From contig JBJXEM010000006.1 in NCBI GenBank assembly GCA_046154225.1, positions 46,124 through 110,123 of the forward strand: a stretch of 64,000 nt of DNA, read 5' to 3'. The notes below the pieces were generated by a model, which did not search any database, was not told the origin of the DNA, and saw nothing but the letters and a program-made list of their open reading frames with translations. This DNA is from Rickettsiales bacterium. Lineage in GTDB: Bacteria > Pseudomonadota > Alphaproteobacteria > Rickettsiales > UBA3002. The translations under genes and the position numbers were made by a program. Shown here piece by piece: positions 3,032-60,843 of the stretch; position 1 is the stretch's first letter, and each line of letters starts with the position of its first letter.

Positions 3032-4845
3032 CCATTCGCCGCCTACCGCAAACGCTGGTGAACCAGATTGCCGCCGGGGAAGTGATTGAGCGCCCGGCCT
3101 CGGTGGTGAAAGAACTGGTCGAGAACGCGATTGATGCGGGCGCGACCGACCTCGACATCGCGCTCGAGCAAGGCGGCGTGACCCTCATCCGCGTGCGCGA
3201 TAATGGGCGCGGTATGGGGCCGGGCGAGCTGCCCCTCGCCATCGAGCGCCACGCCACCTCGAAACTGCCCGACGACGATTTACTGGCGATTCACCATCTC
3301 GGTTTTCGCGGCGAAGCGCTTCCTTCCATTGGCTCCGTCGCGCGCCTGACACTCAGTAGCCGCGCCCGTGGGGCCGCCGAGGCATGGAGCCTGAGCGTGG
3401 AAGGCGGCCACGTGCAGCCGCTGATGCCCACCGCCATGAGCGAAGGCACGCTGGTGGAAGTGCGCGATTTATTTTACGCGGTGCCGGCGCGGCTGAAATT
3501 TTTGAAATCGTCGCGCAGCGAAATCAATGCGGTCGTCGACATCATCGAGCGGCTCGCCATGGCTCACCCCGACATTCGCTTTCGCTTGAGCCACGATGGC
3601 CGCGCGTTGCGCGACTTTCCAGCCCTCACCCGCGATTTTTTAAGTGCGGGGCCCGAACGGCTGGAGAAAATCATCGGGCACGGATTCGCCGCCAATATCG
3701 CTAGCATCGACATGGAGCGCGAGGGCATTCGCCTGACGGGCTTTGCGGGCCTGCCCACGTTTCACCGCGCCACCTCGCAGTCGCAATATCTGTTCGTCAA
3801 CCGCCGCCCGGTGCGCGACCGGCTGCTGCTCGGCGTCATTCGCGCGGCCTATCAGGATTACCTCGCGCGCGACCGCCACCCCGTCGCCGTATTGTTTTTG
3901 GAAGTGCCGGGCGAGCAGGTGGATGTGAATGTCCACCCCGCTAAATCCGAAGTGCGGTTTCGCGATGCGAATGTGGTGCGCGGCCTGATGATCACCGCCC
4001 TGCGCCATGCCATTGGTGCCACCGCCCAGCGCGCGAGCACCACGGTGGCCGATGCGGCGCTGCAGGCGTTTCGCAGTGAGGGTTTAGGGTCTAGGGTTTG
4101 GGGTATAGAAAATGGCGTGCGGCCCCAAGTACTTTCCAATTCAACAACAGAATTTGCTGCACCGAATGCTGCATTGTGGCGTGGTGAACAATTGCCACCG
4201 CAGCATCGTTCTGCTGAGTCAAAATCATCGCACACTAACCCCTATACCCTAAACCCTAGCCCCTCATTCCCCCTCGGCGCTGCCGTCGCGCAGTTGCACC
4301 ACACCTACATTGTGGCACAAACCGCCGATGGGCTCGTCATCGTCGATCAACACGCGGCGCATGAACGGCTGATGTACGAGAAATTCAAGGCCGAACTGGC
4401 GGGCGAAGGAGTGCCGCGCCAAATGCTGCTGCTGCCTGAAGTGGTGGAGTTGAACGAGGCCGAAGCGCACCGCCTGCTTTCGCGGGCGGAGGAATGGGCG
4501 AAGCTGGGGCTGCTGCTGGAGCCATTCGGCGAGCGCACCGTGCTGGTGCGTGAAGTGCCCAGCATGTTTGGGGATGGCGACATTGCAGGGCTGGTGCGCG
4601 ACCTCGCCGAAGAAGTAAGCCTCTATGCCGAAGGCCTTGCGCTGGCCGATAAACTTGAAGCCATTTTAAGCCGCATGGCCTGCCATGGCAGCGTGCGCGC
4701 CGGGCGGGTCCTGAACCTCAACGAAATGAACGCCCTGCTGCGGCAGATGGAAGCGACGCCCTTCAGTGGCCAATGCAACCACGGACGGCCGACTTACGTT
4801 TCGCTCGCGAAGGCGGATGTCGAAAAGCTGTTTGGGCGGCGATGA
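3028..4845 (+). CDS. mutL: DNA mismatch repair protein MutL (605 aa) carrying a repeat-derived in-frame segment in the linker
   Basis: GHKL ATPase N-terminus (VNQIAAGEVIERPASVVKELVENAIDAG, DNGRGM). C-terminal endonuclease/dimerisation motifs (DQHAAHERLMYE, ACHGSVRAG). GTG 3028 overlaps the pgi stop (GTGA). The 2716 start in the track is frame read-through inside pgi. Confidence 0.9.
   Translation: MTIRRLPQTLVNQIAAGEVIERPASVVKELVENAIDAGATDLDIALEQGGVTLIRVRDNGRGMGPGELPLAIERHATSKLPDDDLLAIHHLGFRGEALPSIGSVARLTLSSRARGAAEAWSLSVEGGHVQPLMPTAMSEGTLVEVRDLFYAVPARLKFLKSSRSEINAVVDIIERLAMAHPDIRFRLSHDGRALRDFPALTRDFLSAGPERLEKIIGHGFAANIASIDMEREGIRLTGFAGLPTFHRATSQSQYLFVNRRPVRDRLLLGVIRAAYQDYLARDRHPVAVLFLEVPGEQVDVNVHPAKSEVRFRDANVVRGLMITALRHAIGATAQRASTTVADAALQAFRSEGLGSRVWGIENGVRPQVLSNSTTEFAAPNAALWRGEQLPPQHRSAESKSSHTNPYTLNPSPSFPLGAAVAQLHHTYIVAQTADGLVIVDQHAAHERLMYEKFKAELAGEGVPRQMLLLPEVVELNEAEAHRLLSRAEEWAKLGLLLEPFGERTVLVREVPSMFGDGDIAGLVRDLAEEVSLYAEGLALADKLEAILSRMACHGSVRAGRVLNLNEMNALLRQMEATPFSGQCNHGRPTYVSLAKADVEKLFGRR
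4080..4264. repeat. heptamer-array palindromic element (GGGTNTA units) located inside the mutL reading frame
   Basis: Left arm GGGTTTAGGGTCTAGGGTTTGGGGTATAG (4080-4108). Right arm TAACCCCTATACCCTAAACCCTAGCCCC (4236-4264), the inverse orientation of the same unit. Same arm type as the intergenic copy at 20128-20208. Boundaries are good to a few nt. Confidence 0.8.
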
Positions 4846-5668: not shown

Positions 5669-7339
5669 TCAATGCCGAAAATGCCTCGTACACGTCATCA
5701 GCATGGCGATGCCGTGTTTCTTGGCAGCCGCGATGACTTCGGCGTCGCGCACTGAGCCGCCGGGCTGGATGAGGAGGGTGATGCCGGCAGCAGCGGCGAG
5801 CTCCACATTGTCGGCGAAGGGGAAAAATGCATCCGATGCTAAGGTCGCGCCGCGCGGGTCGTGCCCATGCTGGCGGGCTTTTTCGATGGCGATGCGCACG
5901 GAATCGACGCGCGACATTTGCCCGGCGCCAACGCCGATGGTGGCGCCGTTTTTCACCAGCACAATGGCGTTGGATTTGACGAATTTGACCACATGCCAGG
6001 CGAGGGCGGCATCGGCCATGGCGCTGGGATTAAGGGGGCCGCCGCTGGCTTGCGTCCATGCGCTGGCGGGGGTGGAAGTGCGGTCTTGCTGCTGTACCAA
6101 ATACCCACCGCTGATGGCCTGAATCATCCACCCAGCTAATGGCGAAGCGTGGGTTTCAGGCTGGCACACGAGCAGGCGCAGGTTCTTTTTTGCGGCCAGT
6201 TTTTCGCGCGCTTCGGCGGTGAATTCCGGCGCGACGATGACTTCTAAAAACAAACTGCCAATGGCCTCGACTAGTGCCACATCCACCGGTTGGTTGACGG
6301 CAAGGATACCGCCGAAGGCGCTGACGGGGTCGGACGCTAGGGCTTTGATGAAGGCGTCCACGGCTTTCGCGGCGATGGCAACGCCGCACGGATTTGCATG
6401 TTTAATCAGCACGGCGATAGCAGTTTCGTTAGCGACAGCATAACTGCTGGCAATCGCCCACGCCGCATTGGCATCGGCGAGGTTGTTGTAGCTGAGTTCC
6501 TTGCCTTGCAGCTGCTGCGCGTTTGCGATGCCGCCTTTGGCATCGAGCCGGTTGTACAGGGCGGCCGACTGATGCGGGTTCTCGCCGTAGCGCAGGGGTT
6601 GGCCGAGTGCGGCGTCGAGCAAGTAGGCGGGGAAGACTCCTCCCCCCATCGGGGGGAGGTTGGGCCTGCCGTCCGAAGCCTTGGCGTAGGATGGTGGGGG
6701 GCTGCCATGAGGCGCAGAGCTTGGTTCAGCCCCCCACCTAGCCCCCCCCCGATGGGGGGAGGAATTACCGAGCCAACTACTAATCAGTGTGTCGTAGCTG
6801 GCGCAGCGGGCGAAGGCTTTGGCGGCGAATTTTTTGCGTTCGGTGAGGGGGACAGCACCGCCATTTTGCTGCAGCAATTGTTGCAGCATTTCGTAGTCGG
6901 CGACATCGACCACGACGGTGACAGATTCATGGTTTTTGGCGGCCGCGCGAATCATGGCGGGGCCACCGATATCGATGTTTTCGACCAAATGGTCGTAGTC
7001 GGTGGTGGCGTTCAGGGTGGTTTCGAACGGGTAGAGATTCACCACCAGTAAATCGATCATGCCGATATTGTGGGCGTTCGCAGATTGCATATGCGAGGGC
7101 TCGCTGCGCCGTGCCAGCAACCCGCCATGGATGGCGGGGTGCAGGGTTTTTACGCGCCCGTCCATCATCTCGGGGAACTGCGTCACCTCCGCCACATCGC
7201 GCACGGGGATGCCTGCTTCCGCGAGGGTTTTAGCGGTGCCGCCGGTGGAAAGCAGTTCGATGCCTTGTGCCACCAGAAAATGCGCAAACGGAATCAGCCC
7301 GGTTTTGTCGGAGACGGAAAGAAGCGCGCGGCGGATCAT
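5669..7339 (-). CDS. purH: bifunctional AICAR formyltransferase / IMP cyclohydrolase PurH (556 aa) with a repeat-derived in-frame insertion in the interdomain linker
   Basis: N-terminal MGS-like domain (ALLSVSDKTGL, MDGRVKTLHP). AICARFT domain (LRYGENPHQ, KHANPCG, GAGQMSRVDS, C-terminal MTCTRHFRH). An extra segment of about 43 aa (NSSPHRGGARWGAEPSS...PPMGGG) lies between ISSWLG and VFPAYL. Confidence 0.92.
   Translation of the reverse strand: MIRRALLSVSDKTGLIPFAHFLVAQGIELLSTGGTAKTLAEAGIPVRDVAEVTQFPEMMDGRVKTLHPAIHGGLLARRSEPSHMQSANAHNIGMIDLLVVNLYPFETTLNATTDYDHLVENIDIGGPAMIRAAAKNHESVTVVVDVADYEMLQQLLQQNGGAVPLTERKKFAAKAFARCASYDTLISSWLGNSSPHRGGARWGAEPSSAPHGSPPPSYAKASDGRPNLPPMGGGVFPAYLLDAALGQPLRYGENPHQSAALYNRLDAKGGIANAQQLQGKELSYNNLADANAAWAIASSYAVANETAIAVLIKHANPCGVAIAAKAVDAFIKALASDPVSAFGGILAVNQPVDVALVEAIGSLFLEVIVAPEFTAEAREKLAAKKNLRLLVCQPETHASPLAGWMIQAISGGYLVQQQDRTSTPASAWTQASGGPLNPSAMADAALAWHVVKFVKSNAIVLVKNGATIGVGAGQMSRVDSVRIAIEKARQHGHDPRGATLASDAFFPFADNVELAAAAGITLLIQPGGSVRDAEVIAAAKKHGIAMLMTCTRHFRH
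6639..6762. repeat. G/C-hairpin-bounded palindromic element inside purH
   Basis: Terminal near-palindromes CCTCCCCCCATCGGGGGGAGG (6639-6659) and CCCCCCCCCGATGGGGGGAGG (6742-6762). Internal 11-bp stem GTGGGGGGCTG/CAGCCCCCCAC. Boundaries are approximate. Confidence 0.75.
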
Positions 7340-18954: not shown

Positions 18955-20121
18955 TCAACGCAGCACTTGTTCGATTAGGGCGTTGAGCAACAGGCTGCCG
19001 CGCGGGGTGGCACGCAGGCAATCGTTGGTTGCCTCCAGCAATCCCTCGTCCTGTAAGCGCTGCAGGCGACCATCGCGCCACAGGTTCTCAAGGTAAGCAC
19101 GTTCGTCGGCGCGTAAACGGCCGAGGGCGATGCCCTCGTGCAGCCGCAATCCCATCAGCACCGTTTCCTCGGCGCGTTCGGCGACGCTGAGGGGTGTTTC
19201 CTCCTCCAGCCCGTGGCCCATTCGCTCCACCTGCTCCAACCAACGCTCGGGCGATTTCAAGTTGCGGGTGGCCAGTCTTTGCGGGGGACCGAGTAAGCCC
19301 GAAGCAGGAACGTCTACCCGCCCATGCGCCCCGGGGCCGATGCCGAGATAGGCTTCGCTGCGCCAGTAGCAAAGGTTGTGCTGACTTTCGTGCCCGGCGC
19401 GTGCGTGGTTCGAAATTTCGTAGGCGGGCAGCCCCGCTTCTTCCATCACCCGTTGCGTTAACGCATAAAATTCGGCGGCGAGTTCTTCGCTGGGCAGGGT
19501 GAAGGCTTTGTCGACATGGTAGGCGTGGTGGAACGCCGTGTTTTCCTCGATGGTGAGCTGGTAAAGCGACAGATGGTCGCGCGCGAGCTTAAGGGCGGCG
19601 CGCAATTCCTGCTCCCAGCCCTCCAGCGTTTGGCCGGGAAGGGCGTAAATCAGGTCGAACGTGTAGCGCGGGAATATTTTTTGCGCGAGGGCAATGGCGG
19701 CGCGTGCTTCGTCGGCCGAATGTTCGCGGCCTAAAAACGCGAGTGCTTCAGGCCGCAGTGACTGGATACCGAGCGACAGGCGATTCACCTCCGCCGCACG
19801 CAACTGCACGAATTTTTCGGCTTCGACCGAAGTAGGATTGGCCTCGAGCGTGATTTCCATCGCTTCGTCGTGCGACCATAATTGCTGCGCGCGGGCGATG
19901 AGTGCGGCGGCGGTTTCGGGCGCCATCAGGCTCGGCGTGCCGCCGCCGAAAAACAAGCTGTTCAGCTGAAAATCCGGCACGCGGGCATGCCAGTATTCCA
20001 GCTCGCGCACCAGCGCCGCCCGCCAGCGTGCATGGTCGACCCCCTCGCGCACATGCGAGTTAAAATCGCAATACGGGCATTTCTTTTTGCAAAACGGCCA
20101 GTGGATGTAGAGGGCGCTCAT
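18955..20121 (-). CDS. hemW: radical SAM heme chaperone HemW (HemN-like)
   Basis: CKKKCPYCDF radical-SAM cluster motif near the N-terminus and a HemN_C-like tail. 388 aa. Confidence 0.85.
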   Translation of the reverse strand: MSALYIHWPFCKKKCPYCDFNSHVREGVDHARWRAALVRELEYWHARVPDFQLNSLFFGGGTPSLMAPETAAALIARAQQLWSHDEAMEITLEANPTSVEAEKFVQLRAAEVNRLSLGIQSLRPEALAFLGREHSADEARAAIALAQKIFPRYTFDLIYALPGQTLEGWEQELRAALKLARDHLSLYQLTIEENTAFHHAYHVDKAFTLPSEELAAEFYALTQRVMEEAGLPAYEISNHARAGHESQHNLCYWRSEAYLGIGPGAHGRVDVPASGLLGPPQRLATRNLKSPERWLEQVERMGHGLEEETPLSVAERAEETVLMGLRLHEGIALGRLRADERAYLENLWRDGRLQRLQDEGLLEATNDCLRATPRGSLLLNALIEQVLR

Positions 20122-20127
20122 GGGCAG

Positions 20128-20208
20128 TAGGGTATAGGGTTTAGGGTATAGGGTATAGAGAAGAAACGTAGCTTCCCCTAGACCCTAAACCCTAAACCCT
20201 ATACCCTG
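20128..20208. repeat. heptamer-array hairpin (TAGGGTA/TAGGGTT units) filling the hemW / ORF283 divergent intergenic region
   Basis: Left arm TAGGGTATAGGGTTTAGGGTATAGGGTATAG. About 19-nt loop. Right arm CTAGACCCTAAACCCTAAACCCTATACCCTG. Confidence 0.9.
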
Positions 20209-20214
20209 CGCAGC

Positions 20215-21066
20215 ATGATCGACCATCAAAGCCAGTCTGCCATCATCGAGCTGATGCACGCGAAATACGAAAGCTTGCTGGCCATTGAAGCCGTGTGGGG
20301 CATTCGCCTGCATGAAGGCGACATGCGCCCGCGCATCGAGCATTTTCACGACGCGGTACGGGCCCTCACCTCCGGTTCGGCGAGCCTGTACGATAAAGAC
20401 AGCCGCCTGTCGGTCGAGAACCTCGCCTATGATTTAAGCCAGCTGCGCGGCGTGGCCGATAGGCCGCTGGGCCACGTCAACCGCATCAACGAAAAATCCG
20501 TGGGCACCGCGATTGTGAAGCAGGGCGACGCAGGCGCCAGCGGCCCGCGCATGCCGCCCCAACCCGTGCGCCACCAGCTGGTGAGTGATTATCGCGACTA
20601 CACGGTGTTTTTTGCCGCGTTATTCGCGCAGGCGGCCGACCGCAATTTCCAGTCGCGCGTTGATGAAATCGACAGCGCCGTTTCCGACATCGGCCTCATC
20701 GAGCAGGTGGTGAAGCAGTTGATTGCCGGTAAACTCACCAACGCGCAGGCCAGCGAACAGCTCATGCATGTCGAGCGCGACGATTTACGCGAACGCCTCC
20801 AGACCATGCTCGCACGCAAAACCATGAGCGCGCGCGAAAAGCAGGAAGTGCTGGCGCTGGTTGCGCAAATCGAGCGCGGCATGGCGAAAGAAAAAAAGAG
20901 CCTCGAACAGGCACATCTCAGCTACGCTACCGGTCAACTCGCCGTGTACGAAGACGCGAAGGAAACCGTGAAGCGCCTAGCTGCCGCGGGGCTGAACCTA
21001 GCTGGCAAATTCGTCGAAAACGCAGTACAGGCGGCCCAAGGCCAAGGCAAAGCGCGAGGAATTTAA
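20215..21066 (+). CDS. hypothetical protein (283 aa, predicted helical)
   Basis: Long ORF with codon usage like its neighbours. I recognise no motif and see no signal peptide. Confidence 0.5.
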   Translation: MIDHQSQSAIIELMHAKYESLLAIEAVWGIRLHEGDMRPRIEHFHDAVRALTSGSASLYDKDSRLSVENLAYDLSQLRGVADRPLGHVNRINEKSVGTAIVKQGDAGASGPRMPPQPVRHQLVSDYRDYTVFFAALFAQAADRNFQSRVDEIDSAVSDIGLIEQVVKQLIAGKLTNAQASEQLMHVERDDLRERLQTMLARKTMSAREKQEVLALVAQIERGMAKEKKSLEQAHLSYATGQLAVYEDAKETVKRLAAAGLNLAGKFVENAVQAAQGQGKARGI

Positions 21067-21956: not shown

Positions 21957-21981
21957 ATATATGTACTCCGGTTTGGGTCAA

Positions 21982-22127
21982 CGTCATTGCGAGGCTTGCA
22001 CCTGCATTTCAACCTACTCAAAGATGAAAGGCCGAAGCAATCCAGCTGCTACGCGGCGTTGAAAATGGATTGCCACGGCCTTTCATCGCAGTGCAAGCGG
22101 AGGGCGTATGCATGCCTCGCAATGACG
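21982..22127. repeat. MITE-like nested palindromic element, 146 bp, CGTCATTGCGAGGC termini
   Basis: 14-bp terminal inverted repeats CGTCATTGCGAGGC / GCCTCGCAATGACG. Inner inverted repeat AAGCAATCCA...TGGATTGC. No ORF. Confidence 0.85.
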
Positions 22128-22741: not shown

Positions 22742-22753
22742 AGCGTTTTACTG

Positions 22754-22820
22754 TGAGTGGTGAGTGGTGGGTAGTGAGTGGTTCAGCGTCACTACTCACT
22801 ACCCACTACTCACCACTCAC
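22754..22820. repeat. heptamer-array hairpin (GTGAGTG/GTGGGTA units) between rluB and rsmD, overlapping the rluB stop
   Basis: Left arm GTGAGTGGTGAGTGGTGGGTAGTGAGTGG. Loop TTCAGCGTC. Right arm ACTACTCACTACCCACTACTCACCACTCAC. The last four codons and the stop of rluB (VSGE*) lie in the right arm. Confidence 0.9.
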
Positions 22821-23555
22821 ATCAAGTGATTGCATCAGCTTATTCACCTGCGCGTGGGGCACTTCGCGGGCATTGCCGGGTTTGAGGTCGGCGAGTTCAA
22901 ACGGCCCGTAGGCGGTGCGGATGAGGCGGCTGACGGGGTAATCGAAATGCTCGAAAATACGGCGGATTTCGCGGTTCTTGCCTTCGGTGAGGGTGAGGGT
23001 GAGCCACTGGTTGCGGCCGTCTTTCTCGGCTTCGGCCACCACATGAATGGGCTGATAACGAACCCCCTCGATTTCCAGCCCGTTGCTGAGCATGTATAAA
23101 TGTTTGTCGCTCGGCACGCCACGCACGCGCACGCGATAAACGCGCTCCAAGGCATTGTCGGGCAGTTCGAGCTGGCGCGCGAAGCCACCATCCGTCGTGA
23201 GCAGCAACAAGCCTTCGCTGCTGAGGTCGAGCCGCCCGACCGACACGACGCGTGGGAAGTTCGCGGGCAAATGGTCGAACACGGTGTCGCGGCCCTGTTC
23301 GTCACGGTGGCTGACGACGAGCCCCGCCGGTTTGTGATACACCCATAGGCGCGTGCGGGTGGGCGTCTGGCCGATCACTACGCCATCGACCTCGATGCGG
23401 TCAGCAGCAGTGACGAGGGTAGCGGGCGTGTCGAGCGTTTTGCCGTTCACCGCCACGCGACCTTGTCCAATCAACCGCTCGGCATCGCGCCGTGAGCACA
23501 CTCCGGCTGCGGCGATGATTTTGGCGATGCGTTGGGGATTCGTGTCAGCGGTCAT
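22806..23555 (-). CDS. rluB: rRNA pseudouridine synthase, RsuA/RluB family with S4 domain
   Basis: S4-like N-terminus (RIAKIIAAAGVCSRRDAERLI) and catalytic motif GRLDLSSEGLLLLTTDG. Confidence 0.8.
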   Translation of the reverse strand: MTADTNPQRIAKIIAAAGVCSRRDAERLIGQGRVAVNGKTLDTPATLVTAADRIEVDGVVIGQTPTRTRLWVYHKPAGLVVSHRDEQGRDTVFDHLPANFPRVVSVGRLDLSSEGLLLLTTDGGFARQLELPDNALERVYRVRVRGVPSDKHLYMLSNGLEIEGVRYQPIHVVAEAEKDGRNQWLTLTLTEGKNREIRRIFEHFDYPVSRLIRTAYGPFELADLKPGNAREVPHAQVNKLMQSLDVSGE

Positions 23556-23577
23556 ACGTGCGCCAGCCTTTCCACCA

Positions 23578-23724
23578 CGTCATTGCGAGGCATGCACTGG
23601 CCTATCAGCAAACGCGGTGAGCGTTGGCCAAAGCAATCCATCTTCAGCACGGAGTTGCAGATGGATTGCTTCGGCCCCTCAACACTGTGTGCGCGGTTAG
23701 TGTAGCACTCGCCTCGCAATGACG
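23578..23724. repeat. MITE-like nested palindromic element, 147 bp, second copy of the CGTCATTGCGAGGC family
   Basis: Same 14-bp termini and the same inner AAGCAATCCA...TGGATTGCTT inverted repeat as the copy at 21982-22127. Confidence 0.85.
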
Positions 23725-24769: not shown

Positions 24770-24788
24770 GCCATCAGCTTAGCCGGAT

Positions 24789-24862
24789 CGTCATTCCAGC
24801 GAAAGCTGGAATCCAACTTTTTATTGGCGATGGAATGGATTCCAGCTTTCGCTGGAATGACG
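24789..24862. repeat. MITE-like palindromic element, 74 bp, GTCATTCCAGCGAAAGCTGGAATCC arms
   Basis: Perfect inverted arms CGTCATTCCAGCGAAAGCTGGAATCC / GGATTCCAGCTTTCGCTGGAATGACG. Each arm is itself a hairpin. Confidence 0.9.
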
Positions 24863-24886
24863 AGCGCGAAATGGGTATGCTCAAAT

Positions 24887-24910
24887 CACCACTCACCACT
24901 CACCACTCAC
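24887..24910. repeat. solo heptamer array (CACCACT units) 6 nt upstream of motA
   Basis: CACCACTCACCACTCACCACTCAC is the reverse complement of the GTGAGTG-type arm. There is no partner arm nearby. Confidence 0.8.
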
Positions 24911-24916
24911 GGTTCT

Positions 24917-35304: not shown

Positions 35305-36198
35305 ATGGCCGACATCAAAGAAAAACTTCGTGAAATAGGACATAGTGGTTTTGATAAAGAGCCGCACCCCGAATTCACCTTCGATAAATCATTGCTTTCG
35401 TCGCGCGACCCGTTAACGCAGGCCGAGATTGATTATGTGAATATGCAGGTAGGCGATGCTGTCAGAAAACTGGCGGTTGAATATGGCTGCGAGCCCCAAG
35501 ATGCAGACAAGATCGAAGCGCGTTACTGGTATAGCAAAAAGGGACACGGGTTTTTCGGAAACGATCACGTCTGGGGCATCTTTTACGATCGCGACCAAAG
35601 CAATTTTGATGAGAAGCAGCTCGATGAACCGGTGCCGTACGCGATCAAAGATTTCATGCGTGAATTCGAACGCGCCATGGGCGAAGTCAATTTCAATAAA
35701 GGTAATACCACGCCTCTTGCAGAGGGCGGTCGTCGCGCCGTTGGCTTTTCACAACATGGATGGCACGGCAATTATGCTTTTATGCGCGGCGACTCACGCG
35801 ATGTGCTTCTACCCATGGTAAGGTTAATTCAGCAGTTTGATCCCGAGTTCACGATCCGTTTCGATGTGCCCGAGCAATATACCTCTTGCTACGACGGGAT
35901 CAGCGAAAAAGACCTGTCGGGCATGGCAAACGCGCATGCCTCCGTGTTCTGGATCGACCGCGAATGGGCGCAGGGCGAATTAGACAGACGTGCGCAGGGC
36001 GAGCGTTGGCGAATCATGCAAGAGCGTATCGACCATAGTCGGGTTGAAGCACAGGTGCTCGGTAAACCACAGCCCTTACTCACGCGCTTGAAAATAGCAC
36101 TGTCTAGCAAACATGTGAACACGGTCGACCCCGAAATGCCGTATGGGGGGGCAGAACCGCTGAACCCTACCGCTTGCGGAACGCTTCGAGGGAGATAA
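35305..36198 (+). CDS. hypothetical protein, 297 aa, AT-richer ORFan
   Basis: ATG is preceded by GAAGG and an AT-rich 115-bp upstream region. The gene is visibly lower in GC than the flanks. It contains QYTSCYDGISEKD, reminiscent of the CYD motif in the upstream ORF. Confidence 0.55.
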   Translation: MADIKEKLREIGHSGFDKEPHPEFTFDKSLLSSRDPLTQAEIDYVNMQVGDAVRKLAVEYGCEPQDADKIEARYWYSKKGHGFFGNDHVWGIFYDRDQSNFDEKQLDEPVPYAIKDFMREFERAMGEVNFNKGNTTPLAEGGRRAVGFSQHGWHGNYAFMRGDSRDVLLPMVRLIQQFDPEFTIRFDVPEQYTSCYDGISEKDLSGMANAHASVFWIDREWAQGELDRRAQGERWRIMQERIDHSRVEAQVLGKPQPLLTRLKIALSSKHVNTVDPEMPYGGAEPLNPTACGTLRGR

Positions 36199-36730
36199 CT
36201 TTCTCGTCGTTCGCGGCTTTGGTTTCTTCGCTGGGGGCATCTTCTTCAAAGGCGGCCATGGAGGGTTTTTCGGAGCCGTTTTTGCCGGTGACGGGGCACG
36301 CGACGGGTTCTTCGGCATTGCCGTTTGAAGCCGTGGATTTTGCGCCGTTGTTTGTGTCGCTCGCGCCTGCCGGTTTTTTGCCGTGGAATTGCAGGCCGAA
36401 TTTAATGCTGGGGTCGGCGAACGCCGTGAGTGCATCGAACGGCACCACCAGTTTTTCCGGGATGTTGTTGAAGCTGAGCATGATGGAAAACTGCGTGTCG
36501 GTAATTTTCAAATCCCAAAACTGGTGCTGCACCACGATGGTGATTTCCTCGGGGTAGCGCGCCTTTAACTGCGGCGAAATGCTGACGCCCGGGAAGTTGG
36601 TTTGAAACGAAATGAAGAAATGATGCTCGCCCGGCAGTCCGAATTTGTCGATATGCACTAACGCCTGGCGCACCACGCCGCGCATCGCCGAGTCGATCAT
36701 GCCGGGATAATCTATTGTTTCTTGGCTCAT
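36167..36730 (-). CDS. sspB: ClpXP adaptor SspB (alphaproteobacterial type)
   Basis: SspB fold region (GLPGEHHFFISFQTNFPGVSISPQLKARYPEEITIVVQHQFWDL...VVPFDALTAFADPS), an acidic/Ser-rich linker and a basic C-terminal tail ISLEAFRKR. Confidence 0.78.
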   Translation of the reverse strand: MSQETIDYPGMIDSAMRGVVRQALVHIDKFGLPGEHHFFISFQTNFPGVSISPQLKARYPEEITIVVQHQFWDLKITDTQFSIMLSFNNIPEKLVVPFDALTAFADPSIKFGLQFHGKKPAGASDTNNGAKSTASNGNAEEPVACPVTGKNGSEKPSMAAFEEDAPSEETKAANDEKVISLEAFRKR

Positions 36731-36750
36731 GGGCTTCTTATACAGTGGTT

Positions 36751-36774
36751 AGAGTCGAGAGTCGAGAGTCGAGT
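36751..36774. repeat. tandem heptamer array (AGAGTCG x3) between ssrA and sspB
   Basis: AGAGTCGAGAGTCGAGAGTCGAG read directly from the sequence. Confidence 0.85.
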
Positions 36775-36784
36775 GAAATTAACT

Positions 36785-37260
36785 AAAGTGTTTCAAGTGC
36801 CACCCGGGAGGCGACCGCCGACCCGCGAAAAATCATCCTACGCTAAAGCTACGGACGACGCTCCTTCGCCTAAGGCCGCCTTCGACCGGCGTAAGCCGTC
36901 CGAAGCCGGAGGCGAAGGGCGGTGGGGGGATTCTGTTGCCCAGCTCCCCCCGGGCTGCGTTTACGAGCTAGAGCTCGTCAAGCCACACTAAGCGGCGAGA
37001 CGGGCTGCTACGACGTTGTTGTCGTTAGCTGCAACGAGTGCTACGTTGTCGTTGGCACTTGAAAAGTGATCCGATTATGGGAGATCACCCCAAGCAAAAG
37101 CAGCGCCTTTATTGCGGTTGTCGATGCTAATTCACCCCCACAAAGCCACCGCGTTGCGGTGGCTTTGTGGAGGTGCCGGGCTCTGCCCCCGGGTCCAATC
37201 CGACTATTCCACGATACGTTTATTGCTATAGCCACTTGCGTGACAGTTCTAAATATAAGG
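36785..37260 (-). ncRNA. ssrA: tmRNA (ssrA), circularly permuted two-piece gene: acceptor piece - spacer hairpin - coding piece
   Basis: On the minus strand, ...GGAC-CCGGG-GGCAGAG-CCCGG-CACCUCC-A ends at 37168. A 27-nt hairpin follows at 37141-37167. GGGGGUGAAUUAGCAUCGAC starts at 37139. GGGGGUG pairs with CACCUCC and gives a G3:U pair. The tag frame 37056-36988 reads ANDNVALVAANDNNVVAARLAA*. The outer ends are approximate. Confidence 0.8.
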
Positions 37261-37382
37261 CAAAACGGCCGCGGGTTCAAGCCGCAACTGCGGTCAAAAA
37301 TCGACAATCCGACACGCAACCTTCACGCAACCGTCATCAAACTGTCACATCTGTTTGGTAGGGTGAAGGCTAGGAGAAACCC

Positions 37383-41699: not shown

Positions 41700-41778
41700 C
41701 GTCATTCCAGCGAAAGCTGGAATCTATCGGCTTTTAAAAGTTGGATTCCAGCGCGCGCGGAGCTTGGCTGAAATGACG
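41700..41778. repeat. MITE-like palindromic element (GTCATTCCAGCGAAAGCTGGAAT family), right arm degenerated
   Basis: The left arm is identical to the copy at 24789. The right arm GGATTCCAGCGCGCGCGGAGCTTGGCTGAAATGACG is partly decayed. Confidence 0.8.
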
Positions 41779-43925: not shown

Positions 43926-43985
43926 TGGCGAGGTCTTCTTGCACGTAGGATGAAGCGATTTAATACAGGCTTAAACCTTAAATTT

Positions 43986-44050
43986 GTCATTCCCGCGAAG
44001 GCGGGAATCCACTTTTTTCTTTAGGAGATTCCCGCCTTCGCGGGAATGAC
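43986..44050. repeat. MITE-like palindromic element, 65 bp, GTCATTCCCGCGAAGGCGGGAATCC arms
   Basis: GTCATTCCCGCGAAGGCGGGAATCC ... GATTCCCGCCTTCGCGGGAATGAC. Each arm is a hairpin. Confidence 0.9.
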
Positions 44051-44092
44051 AACATGGATAGGTTGCTGCCAACAGAATAGACAGGGGGAATT

Positions 44093-59703: not shown

Positions 59704-60843
<1,140 letters not shown>

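Follow-up and report, generated by a model that had tools for sequence, protein, structure and literature searches.

A short hairpin common to an in-frame insert in purH and the 3' trailer of ssrA in a Rickettsiales bacterium

The 64,000-nucleotide stretch of Rickettsiales DNA considered here ("the window"; assembly GCA_046154225.1, contig JBJXEM010000006.1, positions 46,124 to 110,123) carries purH with an insert of about 130 nt in its coding sequence, as well as ssrA, the gene for transfer-messenger RNA (tmRNA). A first-pass annotation noticed that the insert and the tmRNA gene have a short core in common, which raises the question of whether an element was copied into ssrA, whether tmRNA sequence ended up in a protein gene, or whether the match is a coincidence. 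From the results below it seems probable that the shared core represents three copies of a single dispersed repeat, a small hairpin of the repetitive extragenic palindromic (REP) or MITE (miniature inverted-repeat transposable element) type, rather than tmRNA sequence or a chance match.

Similarity between purH and the ssrA trailer

The match proposed in the first-pass annotation was found as described: the 13-mer GCCGTCCGAAGCC, read directly, is identical at 6668-6680 and 36895-36907 of the plus strand, and a Smith-Waterman alignment extends it to 35 nt (6668-6702 against 36895-36930, 29 identities, one gap of 1 nt). The orientation relative to the two genes is indeed the same, with purH (5669-7339) and ssrA (36921-37284) both on the minus strand. 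The supposition that chance was unlikely also held, since the observed score of 16 compares with a mean of 8.2-8.9 (sd ~1.15) for dinucleotide-preserving shuffles, and none of the 2000 shuffles of either partner matched it. When the whole window was tiled, the 220-nt tile scoring highest against the purH element was, on both strands, the ssrA region. Past the 35 nt, no convincing further similarity between the purH element and the ssrA region was found by alignment. A Logan assembly made independently from this sample (L113) has the ssrA flank as well, which is therefore not an assembly artefact.

Two GC-rich sequences with G-runs might of course match by chance, all the more as a lone 13-mer is expected about 0.2 times (the estimate of the first-pass annotation) and blastn-short, for the two pieces of the match separately and in a small database, returned E-values of 0.027 and 0.11. 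However, once the G-run and the conserved tmRNA portion are taken out, what is left of the core scores 13 and 14, where shuffles average 6.8 (sd 1.05), a score of 13 being reached by one and a score of 14 by none of 3000 core-only shuffles. In addition, a second, inverted copy that had been overlooked lies at 36834-36857 (21 of 24 nt identical to 6670-6693, ungapped), so that two independent core matches occur less than 100 nt apart, and all three copies fall in a hairpin family that is defined outside the window. The shuffle tests and the matches to a model of viral copies (see below) refute the chance explanation, to which we attach next to no probability.

The family in question consists of a hairpin unit of about 30 nt, with an outer stem of 6-7 bp, a 3-by-3 internal loop of G(A/T)A over G(A/T)A, a GC(C)/(G)GC inner stem of 2-3 bp and a loop of 2-4 nt, i.e. 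an interior CCG(A/T)AGC-loop-GCG(A/T)AGG flanked by complementary arms. More than 160 copies are found in metagenomic and viral contigs ranging from 30 to 72% GC, in which the interior is invariant and the outer arms covary. A metagenome scan with the pattern GCCGTCCGAAGCCN{2,3}GGCGWAGG gave 64 loci, in host contigs of 36-72% GC, where some 2 would be expected by chance (our own estimate, under uniform base composition). The consensus of these loci, ggcctGCCGTCC-GAA-GCC-TT-GGC-G(A/T)A-GGAnGGC, is the hairpin, and where the pattern left the 3' arm free, that arm is conserved so as to complement the 5' arm. Scans of viral contigs with the interior only gave 66 loci for CCGAAGCCTTGGCGWAGG and 41 loci, in contigs of 30-71% GC, for the interior of the type found in the inverted copy, CCGTAGCTTTAGCGWAGG. 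In both viral sets the unforced arms pair and covary (TCCG/CGGA, TCCT/AGGA, CCCG/CGGG, and TTATATT/AATATAA in AT-rich contigs). Over 56 viral copies, 93% of the outer-arm cells are paired and 54 cells are changed on both sides, which none of 500 shuffles matched, while slid controls fall to 29-59% paired; pair 10-29, for instance, is UA in 23 sequences, GC in 18, CG in 5 and AU in 2, and pair 7-32 is UA in 23, CG in 18 and GC in 3.

A covariance model (R1) built solely from the viral-contig copies recognises the copy in purH (copy P, 6663-6700, with the GAA strand on the plus strand, antisense to purH) at 44.4 bits (E = 1.2e-7), and the copy that contains the 13-mer near ssrA (copy A, 36890-36928, plus strand) at 21.2 bits (E = 0.019). 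The inverted copy (copy B, 36827-36864, minus strand, where the GAA-type strand is the ssrA sense strand) scores low, yet its exact interior, CCGTAGCTTTAGCGTAGG, is that of the recurrent subfamily with 41 viral loci and paired, covarying arms. Copy P folds on the plus strand as the consensus hairpin at -14.9 kcal/mol against -7.0 for the other strand, copy A folds at -16.8 kcal/mol on the plus strand (the ssrA-sense strand reading CCCUUCGCCUCCGGCUUCGGACGG), and copy B folds at -11.2 kcal/mol (z = -2.5) against -3.8 for its complement. That the GAA strand folds so much better than its complement is due to G-U pairs.

The hairpin occurs singly, in inverted doublets, in tandem arrays (L170, with a period of 121) and as a module of larger composites. 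Rfam, searched at its gathering thresholds and at E <= 1 on five of the loci, returned tRNA, tmRNA and noise, and no family for the hairpin; a full-text literature search for the motif strings found no paper, and searches for tRNA-trailer repeats found the general REP and MITE literature only. To our knowledge, none of the K-turn, sarcin-ricin loop, attC, ssoA CS-6, CRISPR-repeat or IS200/IS605-end motifs fits the interior. As a separate observation, the interior of the copy B type is accompanied by AT-rich arms and a conserved 5' flank, GTTTTCCGATTATATT, in five IMG/VR contigs of 30-37% GC (L257, L260, L271, L274 and L283), and several of these B-type contigs are named GVMAG, a label for giant-virus metagenome-assembled genomes (MAGs).

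Position of the copies at ssrA and in purH

The ssrA gene is a circularly permuted (two-piece) tmRNA gene of the alpha type (Rfam RF01849, 196.7 bits; RF04321, 116.6 bits; called as a permuted tmRNA by ARAGORN). The last pseudoknot of its coding piece, at 36921-36955 of the minus strand, reads GCCC-GGGGGG-AGCU-GGGC-AACAGAAU-CCCCCC-ACC and is of the H-type, with GCCC/GGGC and G6/C6 pairing; this pairing was read from the sequence, and the pseudoknot recurs in six relatives and in the Rfam consensus. Directly downstream lies sspB (36167-36730, minus strand; Pfam SspB, E = 9e-43), whose product matches at 100% identity a protein recorded as 'SspB family protein [Rickettsiales bacterium]' and which bounds a variable spacer. 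The ssrA-sspB loci of the six relatives, reached through SspB homologues and all with alpha_tmRNA matches of 190-230 bits, are conserved up to ...CCCGGGGGGAGCCGGGCAACAGAATCCCCCCAC (pseudoknot ...AATCCCCCCAC, end ...CCCCCCAC) and diverge completely afterwards. The Rfam alpha_tmRNA match likewise stops at 36921, and the 13-mer sits 3' of that end. Both hairpin copies, together with the 13-mer, are thus inside the variable 190-nt ssrA-sspB spacer.

Of the placement in the pseudoknot region, only the tail of the match, GGTGGGGGG (36921-36929, 9 nt), therefore survives. For these 9 nt the shared segment is conserved pseudoknot in relatives that lack the element, and only there does it belong to the alpha-type tmRNA (RF01849); the 13-mer and the two hairpin copies do not. 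The suggestion that the same element had been copied inside ssrA is right as regards one hairpin module of about 30 nt and wrong as regards the whole purH element, the ssrA flank being without its poly-C/poly-G terminal hairpins. Nor is the module inside the gene: it stands immediately 3' of the conserved tmRNA end, and does so twice, as an inverted doublet in which copy A abuts the ...CCCCCCACC end of the coding piece (against ...CCACC) and copy B follows 45 nt further on.

Copy B is followed by AUUUUU (36828-36832 on the plus strand), 64 nt past the tmRNA end, and no U-run follows copies A and P. With its hairpin and run of five U, copy B is likely to be the intrinsic terminator of ssrA, and it would plausibly end transcription there; a consensus terminator scan did not call it as one. 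Resemblance to intrinsic terminators, or to 3'-trailer hairpins of stable RNAs, extends to the many family members that stand right after a tRNA CCA. Unlike such terminators, however, most members of the family are without a U-tract, the same sequence also occurs in open reading frames (ORFs), and in copy A and the tRNA-adjacent copies it is the weaker UUC strand that appears in the sense transcript.

Some further features of this region may be recorded here. A tandem heptamer GTCGAGA (about 3.5 units, 36750-36775) lies at the 3' edge of the spacer, directly upstream of the sspB start codon. The tag frame of the tmRNA (36988-37056, minus strand) encodes a 22-residue tag, ANDNVALVAANDNNVVAARLAA, in which the ANDN motif occurs twice and which is kept with 0-1 substitutions in all six relatives (L114-L120); the tag called by ARAGORN, EGASSVALA, looks wrong. 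Next to an adjacent sspB, the two NDN motifs may represent two adaptor-binding sites. The ssrA genes of relatives (L115, L117, L118, L119 and L120) are longer, 377-519 nt versus 364 nt here, with inserts located in the intervening segment, which runs from the CCA of the acceptor piece to the 5' end of the coding piece; L115 and L117 have hairpins of the family there, and L118-L120 have a different insert of about 100 nt in common.

In purH, which encodes 556 amino acids (Pfam MGS at residues 14-127, AICARFT_IMPCHas at 133-487), copy P is part of a palindromic insert at approximately 6637-6765. This insert is absent from homologues and is read in frame as some 43 residues (...NSSPHRGGARWGAEPSSAPHGSPPPSYAKASDGRPNLPPMGGGVF...). 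It is bounded by inverted repeats with 27-nt arms that are 89% complementary (left arm, TCCTCCCCCCATCGGGGGGAGGTTGGG, at 6638-6664; right arm at 6737-6763), and these terminal inverted repeats (TIRs) are themselves C6/G6 hairpins. The 18-mer CCTCCCCCCATCGGGGGG occurs within the window only at the two ends of the insert (0.07 expected). The insert also has a central G/C stem-loop (GGTGGGGGGCTG ... CAGCCCCCCACC, 6693-6740), read from the sequence and present in the minimum free energy structure, of which the 5' arm provides the GGTGGGGGG that lengthens the match to ssrA. The region as a whole folds at -97 kcal/mol (z = -5.3).

Alignment with 20 homologues places the approximately 43 extra residues after ...YDTLISSWL, and comparison with the DNA of L185 likewise shows the segment as inserted; the closest homologues, of 72-73% identity and 514-519 amino acids, are without it. 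Residues 194-247 face 22 residues (200-221) of the solved Mycobacterium tuberculosis PurH (3ZZM), and this comparison, together with the Pfam domains, puts the insertion site in the linker between the IMP-cyclohydrolase and AICAR-transformylase halves. Copy P would accordingly be one module of a palindromic composite of four hairpins, about 130 nt long, that entered purH in frame in the interdomain linker and was kept as extra residues; being in frame and in a linker would explain why it persists, and PurH presumably tolerates it.

On metagenome contig L182 a putA-like ORF contains, in frame, a homologous composite with the same module order, of which the other strand is translated and which carries an equivalent central stem (GGTGGGGGCG...CGCCCCC). 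In called proteins the composite is nevertheless rare, as judged from nearly empty searches with the insert peptide: in the purH frame it had no shared word triplets among 5.8 billion non-redundant proteins, and in the opposite-strand frame it had two weak matches among 1.84 billion representative proteins. An exact look-up of the complete PurH protein gave no identical record.

The PurH proteins of relatives (P0028-P0076) contain varied in-frame inserts at 4-5 surface sites, this linker included, with recurrent peptides such as CVAEGEPRSEGVS, VVSPESLVVSKE..DSRLTTHDS and HSEAQPKNPARDPSPSAQDD, which points to several repeat families colonising coding genes throughout the lineage. The idea that the same repeats fill purH and ssrA lineage-wide was considered and dropped: the purH inserts of the relative L252 and the ssrA inserts of relatives have no DNA in common, leaving it unsupported beyond this window. 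Elsewhere in purH, a perfect 22-nt palindrome, TGCTGCAGCAATTGTTGCAGCA (6867-6888, coding for LQQLLQQ), has a 95%-identical copy 4.4 kb away, at 2448-2469.

The continuation of the match into GGTGGGGGG bears on the remaining suggestion of the first-pass annotation, namely that the element derives from tmRNA. This finds no support: the six relatives keep the pseudoknot with an unrelated trailer sequence, and more than 160 unrelated metagenomic and viral sites carry the same hairpin with no tmRNA nearby. A narrower version would have the purH element descend from, or capture, a tmRNA or tRNA 3' end with its trailer hairpin, so that ...CCCCCCACC(A) plus hairpin is homologous throughout. Besides the match continuing through CCCCCCACC, the purH junction (CCACCA followed by TCCTACGCC) is nearly identical to that at the end of the ssrA acceptor piece in the relative L117 (CCACCA followed by TCCTTCGCC), and the L182 composite too has a G/C stem ending in ACCA ahead of the hairpin. 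However, the stem-loops preceding ACC(A) have only a G/C run in common with tmRNA, the GGCAACAGAA loop is missing from the purH element, and neither ARAGORN nor Rfam detected a tRNA or tmRNA in the insert. In the family as a whole, positions +1 to +5 after the interior are the 3' arm and so are accounted for by arm complementarity, while +6 and +7 are weakly G-rich. It would seem instead that the two sequences reach GGTGGGGGG by separate origins, in ssrA through the native G6/C6 stem (the C6 strand plus ACC) and in purH through the element's own G/C stem. Capture of a tRNA-like end is thus very unlikely, a small probability being retained because of the likeness between the purH and L117 junctions.

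Association with tRNA and tmRNA 3' ends

The position of copy A next to the tmRNA end is not peculiar to this window. Fifteen of the 64 metagenome copies (GCCGTCC-arm subfamily) are situated 3' of a tRNA or tmRNA gene at a distance of at most 120 nt, a zone that makes up 0.8% of the locus sequence (binomial P = 3e-18). Orientation depends on distance: copies 1-2 nt past the gene end have the opposite orientation (sense strand ...GCCA followed by TCCTTCGCCAAGGCTTCGGACGGC), and those 31-110 nt past it have the same orientation as the gene, with one exception. At several loci the two are combined into a doublet, i.e. tRNA-like 3' end, UUC-strand hairpin, spacer and GAA-strand hairpin, and the spacer is exactly 45 nt in L135, L141 and L151 as well as in the ssrA trailer of the window. 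In L117, the acceptor-piece CCA of the tmRNA is directly followed, within the intervening segment that is excised, by a first hairpin with GGCTTACGCC(A/G)G behind it (R1 match at 2002-2040, 26.9 bits, E = 0.001); copy A, including the GGCTTACGCC(A/G)G that follows it, is homologous to this hairpin. L115 also has a hairpin of the family, and in L174 one is found 42 nt after a one-piece tmRNA. Given these doublets and CCA-adjacent hairpins elsewhere, the hairpin abutting ...CCCCCCACC in the window is an instance of a general trailer architecture. Relative to upstream ORFs there is no clear orientation bias (21 against 11), and 95 of 127 copies are away from ORF ends. Separately, in L160 (~4250-4330) and L164 (~1990-2020) the hairpin lies beside tRNA-Ser 3' fragments that are truncated to the acceptor and a portion of the T arm, as expected where an island has integrated at a tRNA gene and displaced its original end.

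Alternatively, the hairpin could be mainly a functional 3'-end signal (for termination, processing or protection) that a widespread factor recognises in tRNA-like transcripts and in some operons, and the purH copy a by-product of the composite. This partly overlaps with the dispersed-repeat explanation. It would account for an interior that is fixed while the arms covary with host composition (AT-rich arms in contigs of 30-37% GC), for the enrichment directly 3' of tRNA, one-piece tmRNA (L174) and the two-piece acceptor CCA (L117), for a 45-nt doublet spacing that is constant in four unrelated loci, for the much greater stability of the GAA strand through G-U pairs, for the U-tail on copy B, and for several related phage contigs in which the hairpin falls between a stop codon and the next start codon. 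It does not sit well with in-frame copies inside proteins (purH and the putA-like ORF) and with tandem arrays (L170), nor with a presence and position that vary among the ssrA genes of close relatives, the lack of a clear orientation bias to upstream ORFs, the lack of an Rfam match, and a viral set without a tRNA link. On balance, we consider a mainly functional signal possible, if somewhat unlikely.

More tentatively, and with rather more doubt than belief, the module might be one that is spread across bacteria and phages, with an interior of 14-18 nt that stays fixed while the arms covary, and that in cellular genomes marks the 3' ends of tRNA-like genes (tRNAs, one-piece tmRNA and both pieces of two-piece tmRNA), often as a doublet; no description of such a module was found. 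If so, there would be either a widely shared factor that reads it as a signal for processing or termination at 3' ends, or a mobile element directed at tRNA-like ...NCCA ends, and the 3' end of the tmRNA coding piece (...CCACC) would be treated like that of a tRNA.

Relation to known repeat systems

In its behaviour, the purH insert is closest to the Rickettsia palindromic elements (RPEs), reportedly described by Ogata et al. in 2000. Like these, it is a palindrome in the range of 100-150 nt that is inserted in frame in a protein gene, apparently without disrupting it, and is translated; the source is likewise a member of the Rickettsiales, and relatives have many in-frame PurH inserts. The likeness is one of behaviour; the purH element is GC-rich with poly-C/poly-G hairpins. 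Of the 526 palindromic elements counted in Rickettsia bellii, protein genes contain 53 and the tmRNA gene contains one (PMC1458961); here, by contrast, only a 30-nt module is common to the ssrA region, and it is situated in the trailer, not inside the tmRNA.

The core itself is better compared with REPs. The GTAG/CGTC REPs are imperfect palindromes of 20-40 nt that contain G-T pairs, often form inverted dimers with 20-100 bp between the units, and mostly lie just 3' of genes and occasionally within ORFs (Di Nocera et al. 2013, PMC3733652). As in REP, REPIN and BIME elements, the core is an imperfect palindrome of REP size near gene 3' ends, and the A/B doublet fits the dimer picture. It differs in having no unpaired terminal GTAG/CGTC tag, CGTC being within the stem and GTAG, in copies that have it, within the internal loop. 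The CGTC families have a stem of 8-9 bp starting with AT and a loop of 4-5 nt (PMC3733652), and the stem of the core does not start with AT. REPs are, moreover, usually lineage-specific, whereas the core interior is constant from 30 to 72% GC, and no RAYT was identified, though none was systematically sought.

With MITEs, the purH composite shares a length of about 130 nt, 27-nt TIRs that are 89% complementary, the lack of a coding capacity of its own and a homologue elsewhere (L182); unlike for MITEs, no target-site duplication or parent insertion sequence was identified for it. In-frame fusion to ORFs is a recognised behaviour of MITE-like repeats, and their entry into coding and small-RNA genes is known from, for example, the MITEs of Coxiella burnetii (PMC5896051) and the Correia/NEMIS elements (reviewed in PMC3184786). 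A scan of GTDB genomes with the 18-mer CCTCCCCCCATCGGGGGG gave 112 stretches from diverse phyla, none of which contains the hairpin core. In a Sphingomonadales MAG, CCTCCCCCCATCGGGGGG is the TIR of MITE-like elements of 130-210 nt (L006, 2222-2432; L011, 83-226; L078, 635-772), and it is multi-copy in the Chloroflexales MAG ELA448; the internal content in these Sphingomonadales and Chloroflexales MAGs differs from that of the purH element. Since its terminal hairpin is common to otherwise unrelated MITE-like elements, the purH composite appears to be a mosaic of modules rather than one transposon.

To judge from the non-orthologous positions that it takes in relatives' ssrA genes, from its in-frame copies in genes that are not related and from its presence in phage contigs, the hairpin would be mobile, by transposition or recombination. 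Several observations weigh against the interpretation of the core as a dispersed repeat. Copy B matches R1 only marginally (12.5 bits, E = 1.8), and the window, 64 kb of the source genome, contains three copies only, so that the repeat is at most putatively multi-copy in this genome. The hairpin consensus had no BLAST match in a plasmid collection, and no transposase was identified, with the limit that those of the RAYT and IS200/IS605 type were not systematically looked for. The linker is too divergent from L185 to define junctions or any target-site duplication. The association with tRNA genes was measured on a subfamily of which the arm (GCCG/GCCA) can overlap a tRNA 3' end, and it is absent in the viral set, which has just 5 tRNA genes in 594 kb. 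Finally, the interior does not vary between hosts that span 30-72% GC; this is unusual in a REP and suggests a sequence-specific function beyond the picture of a selfish repeat. Clustering of the proteins encoded near hairpins gave phage-gene clusters and one orthologous set only, and no recurrent transposase was evident among these clusters, which are unannotated.

The window contains other repeats as well. Hairpins of the type CGTCATTCC(A/C)GCGAA(A/G)GC(T/G)GGAAT are found at 24788-24863, 41700-41727 and 43984-44052, two of them as perfect inverted dimers; these dRS3-like hairpins fit CGTC-1 REPs as described in PMC3733652 (Neisseria dRS3, R. conorii RPE-6), and the shared core does not. Hairpins of heptamer repeats (TAGGGTA/TAGGGTT and GTGAGTG/GTGGGTA types), with arms of up to 47 nt, occur at 4235-4271, 20112-20224, 22752-22821, 24886-24913 and 60774-60843 and are another repeat class. 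A 120-nt direct repeat of 70% identity (21981-22100 and 23577-23696, 1.6 kb apart), with internal inverted arms of 65 nt, may represent the ends of a small mobile unit.

For the window, the dispersed-repeat explanation removes two tempting misreadings, namely a tmRNA sequence transferred to a protein gene and a tmRNA pseudoknot broken by an element, and it defines the real boundary of ssrA as well as its likely terminator. More broadly, small palindromic modules are present both in proteins of this alphaproteobacterial lineage and around its ssrA, much like the RPEs of Rickettsia. If the association with tRNA ends proves to be a function or a targeting rule, the hairpin would be a marker for the 3' ends of stable RNAs and a tractable case for how short hairpin repeats spread among distant hosts.

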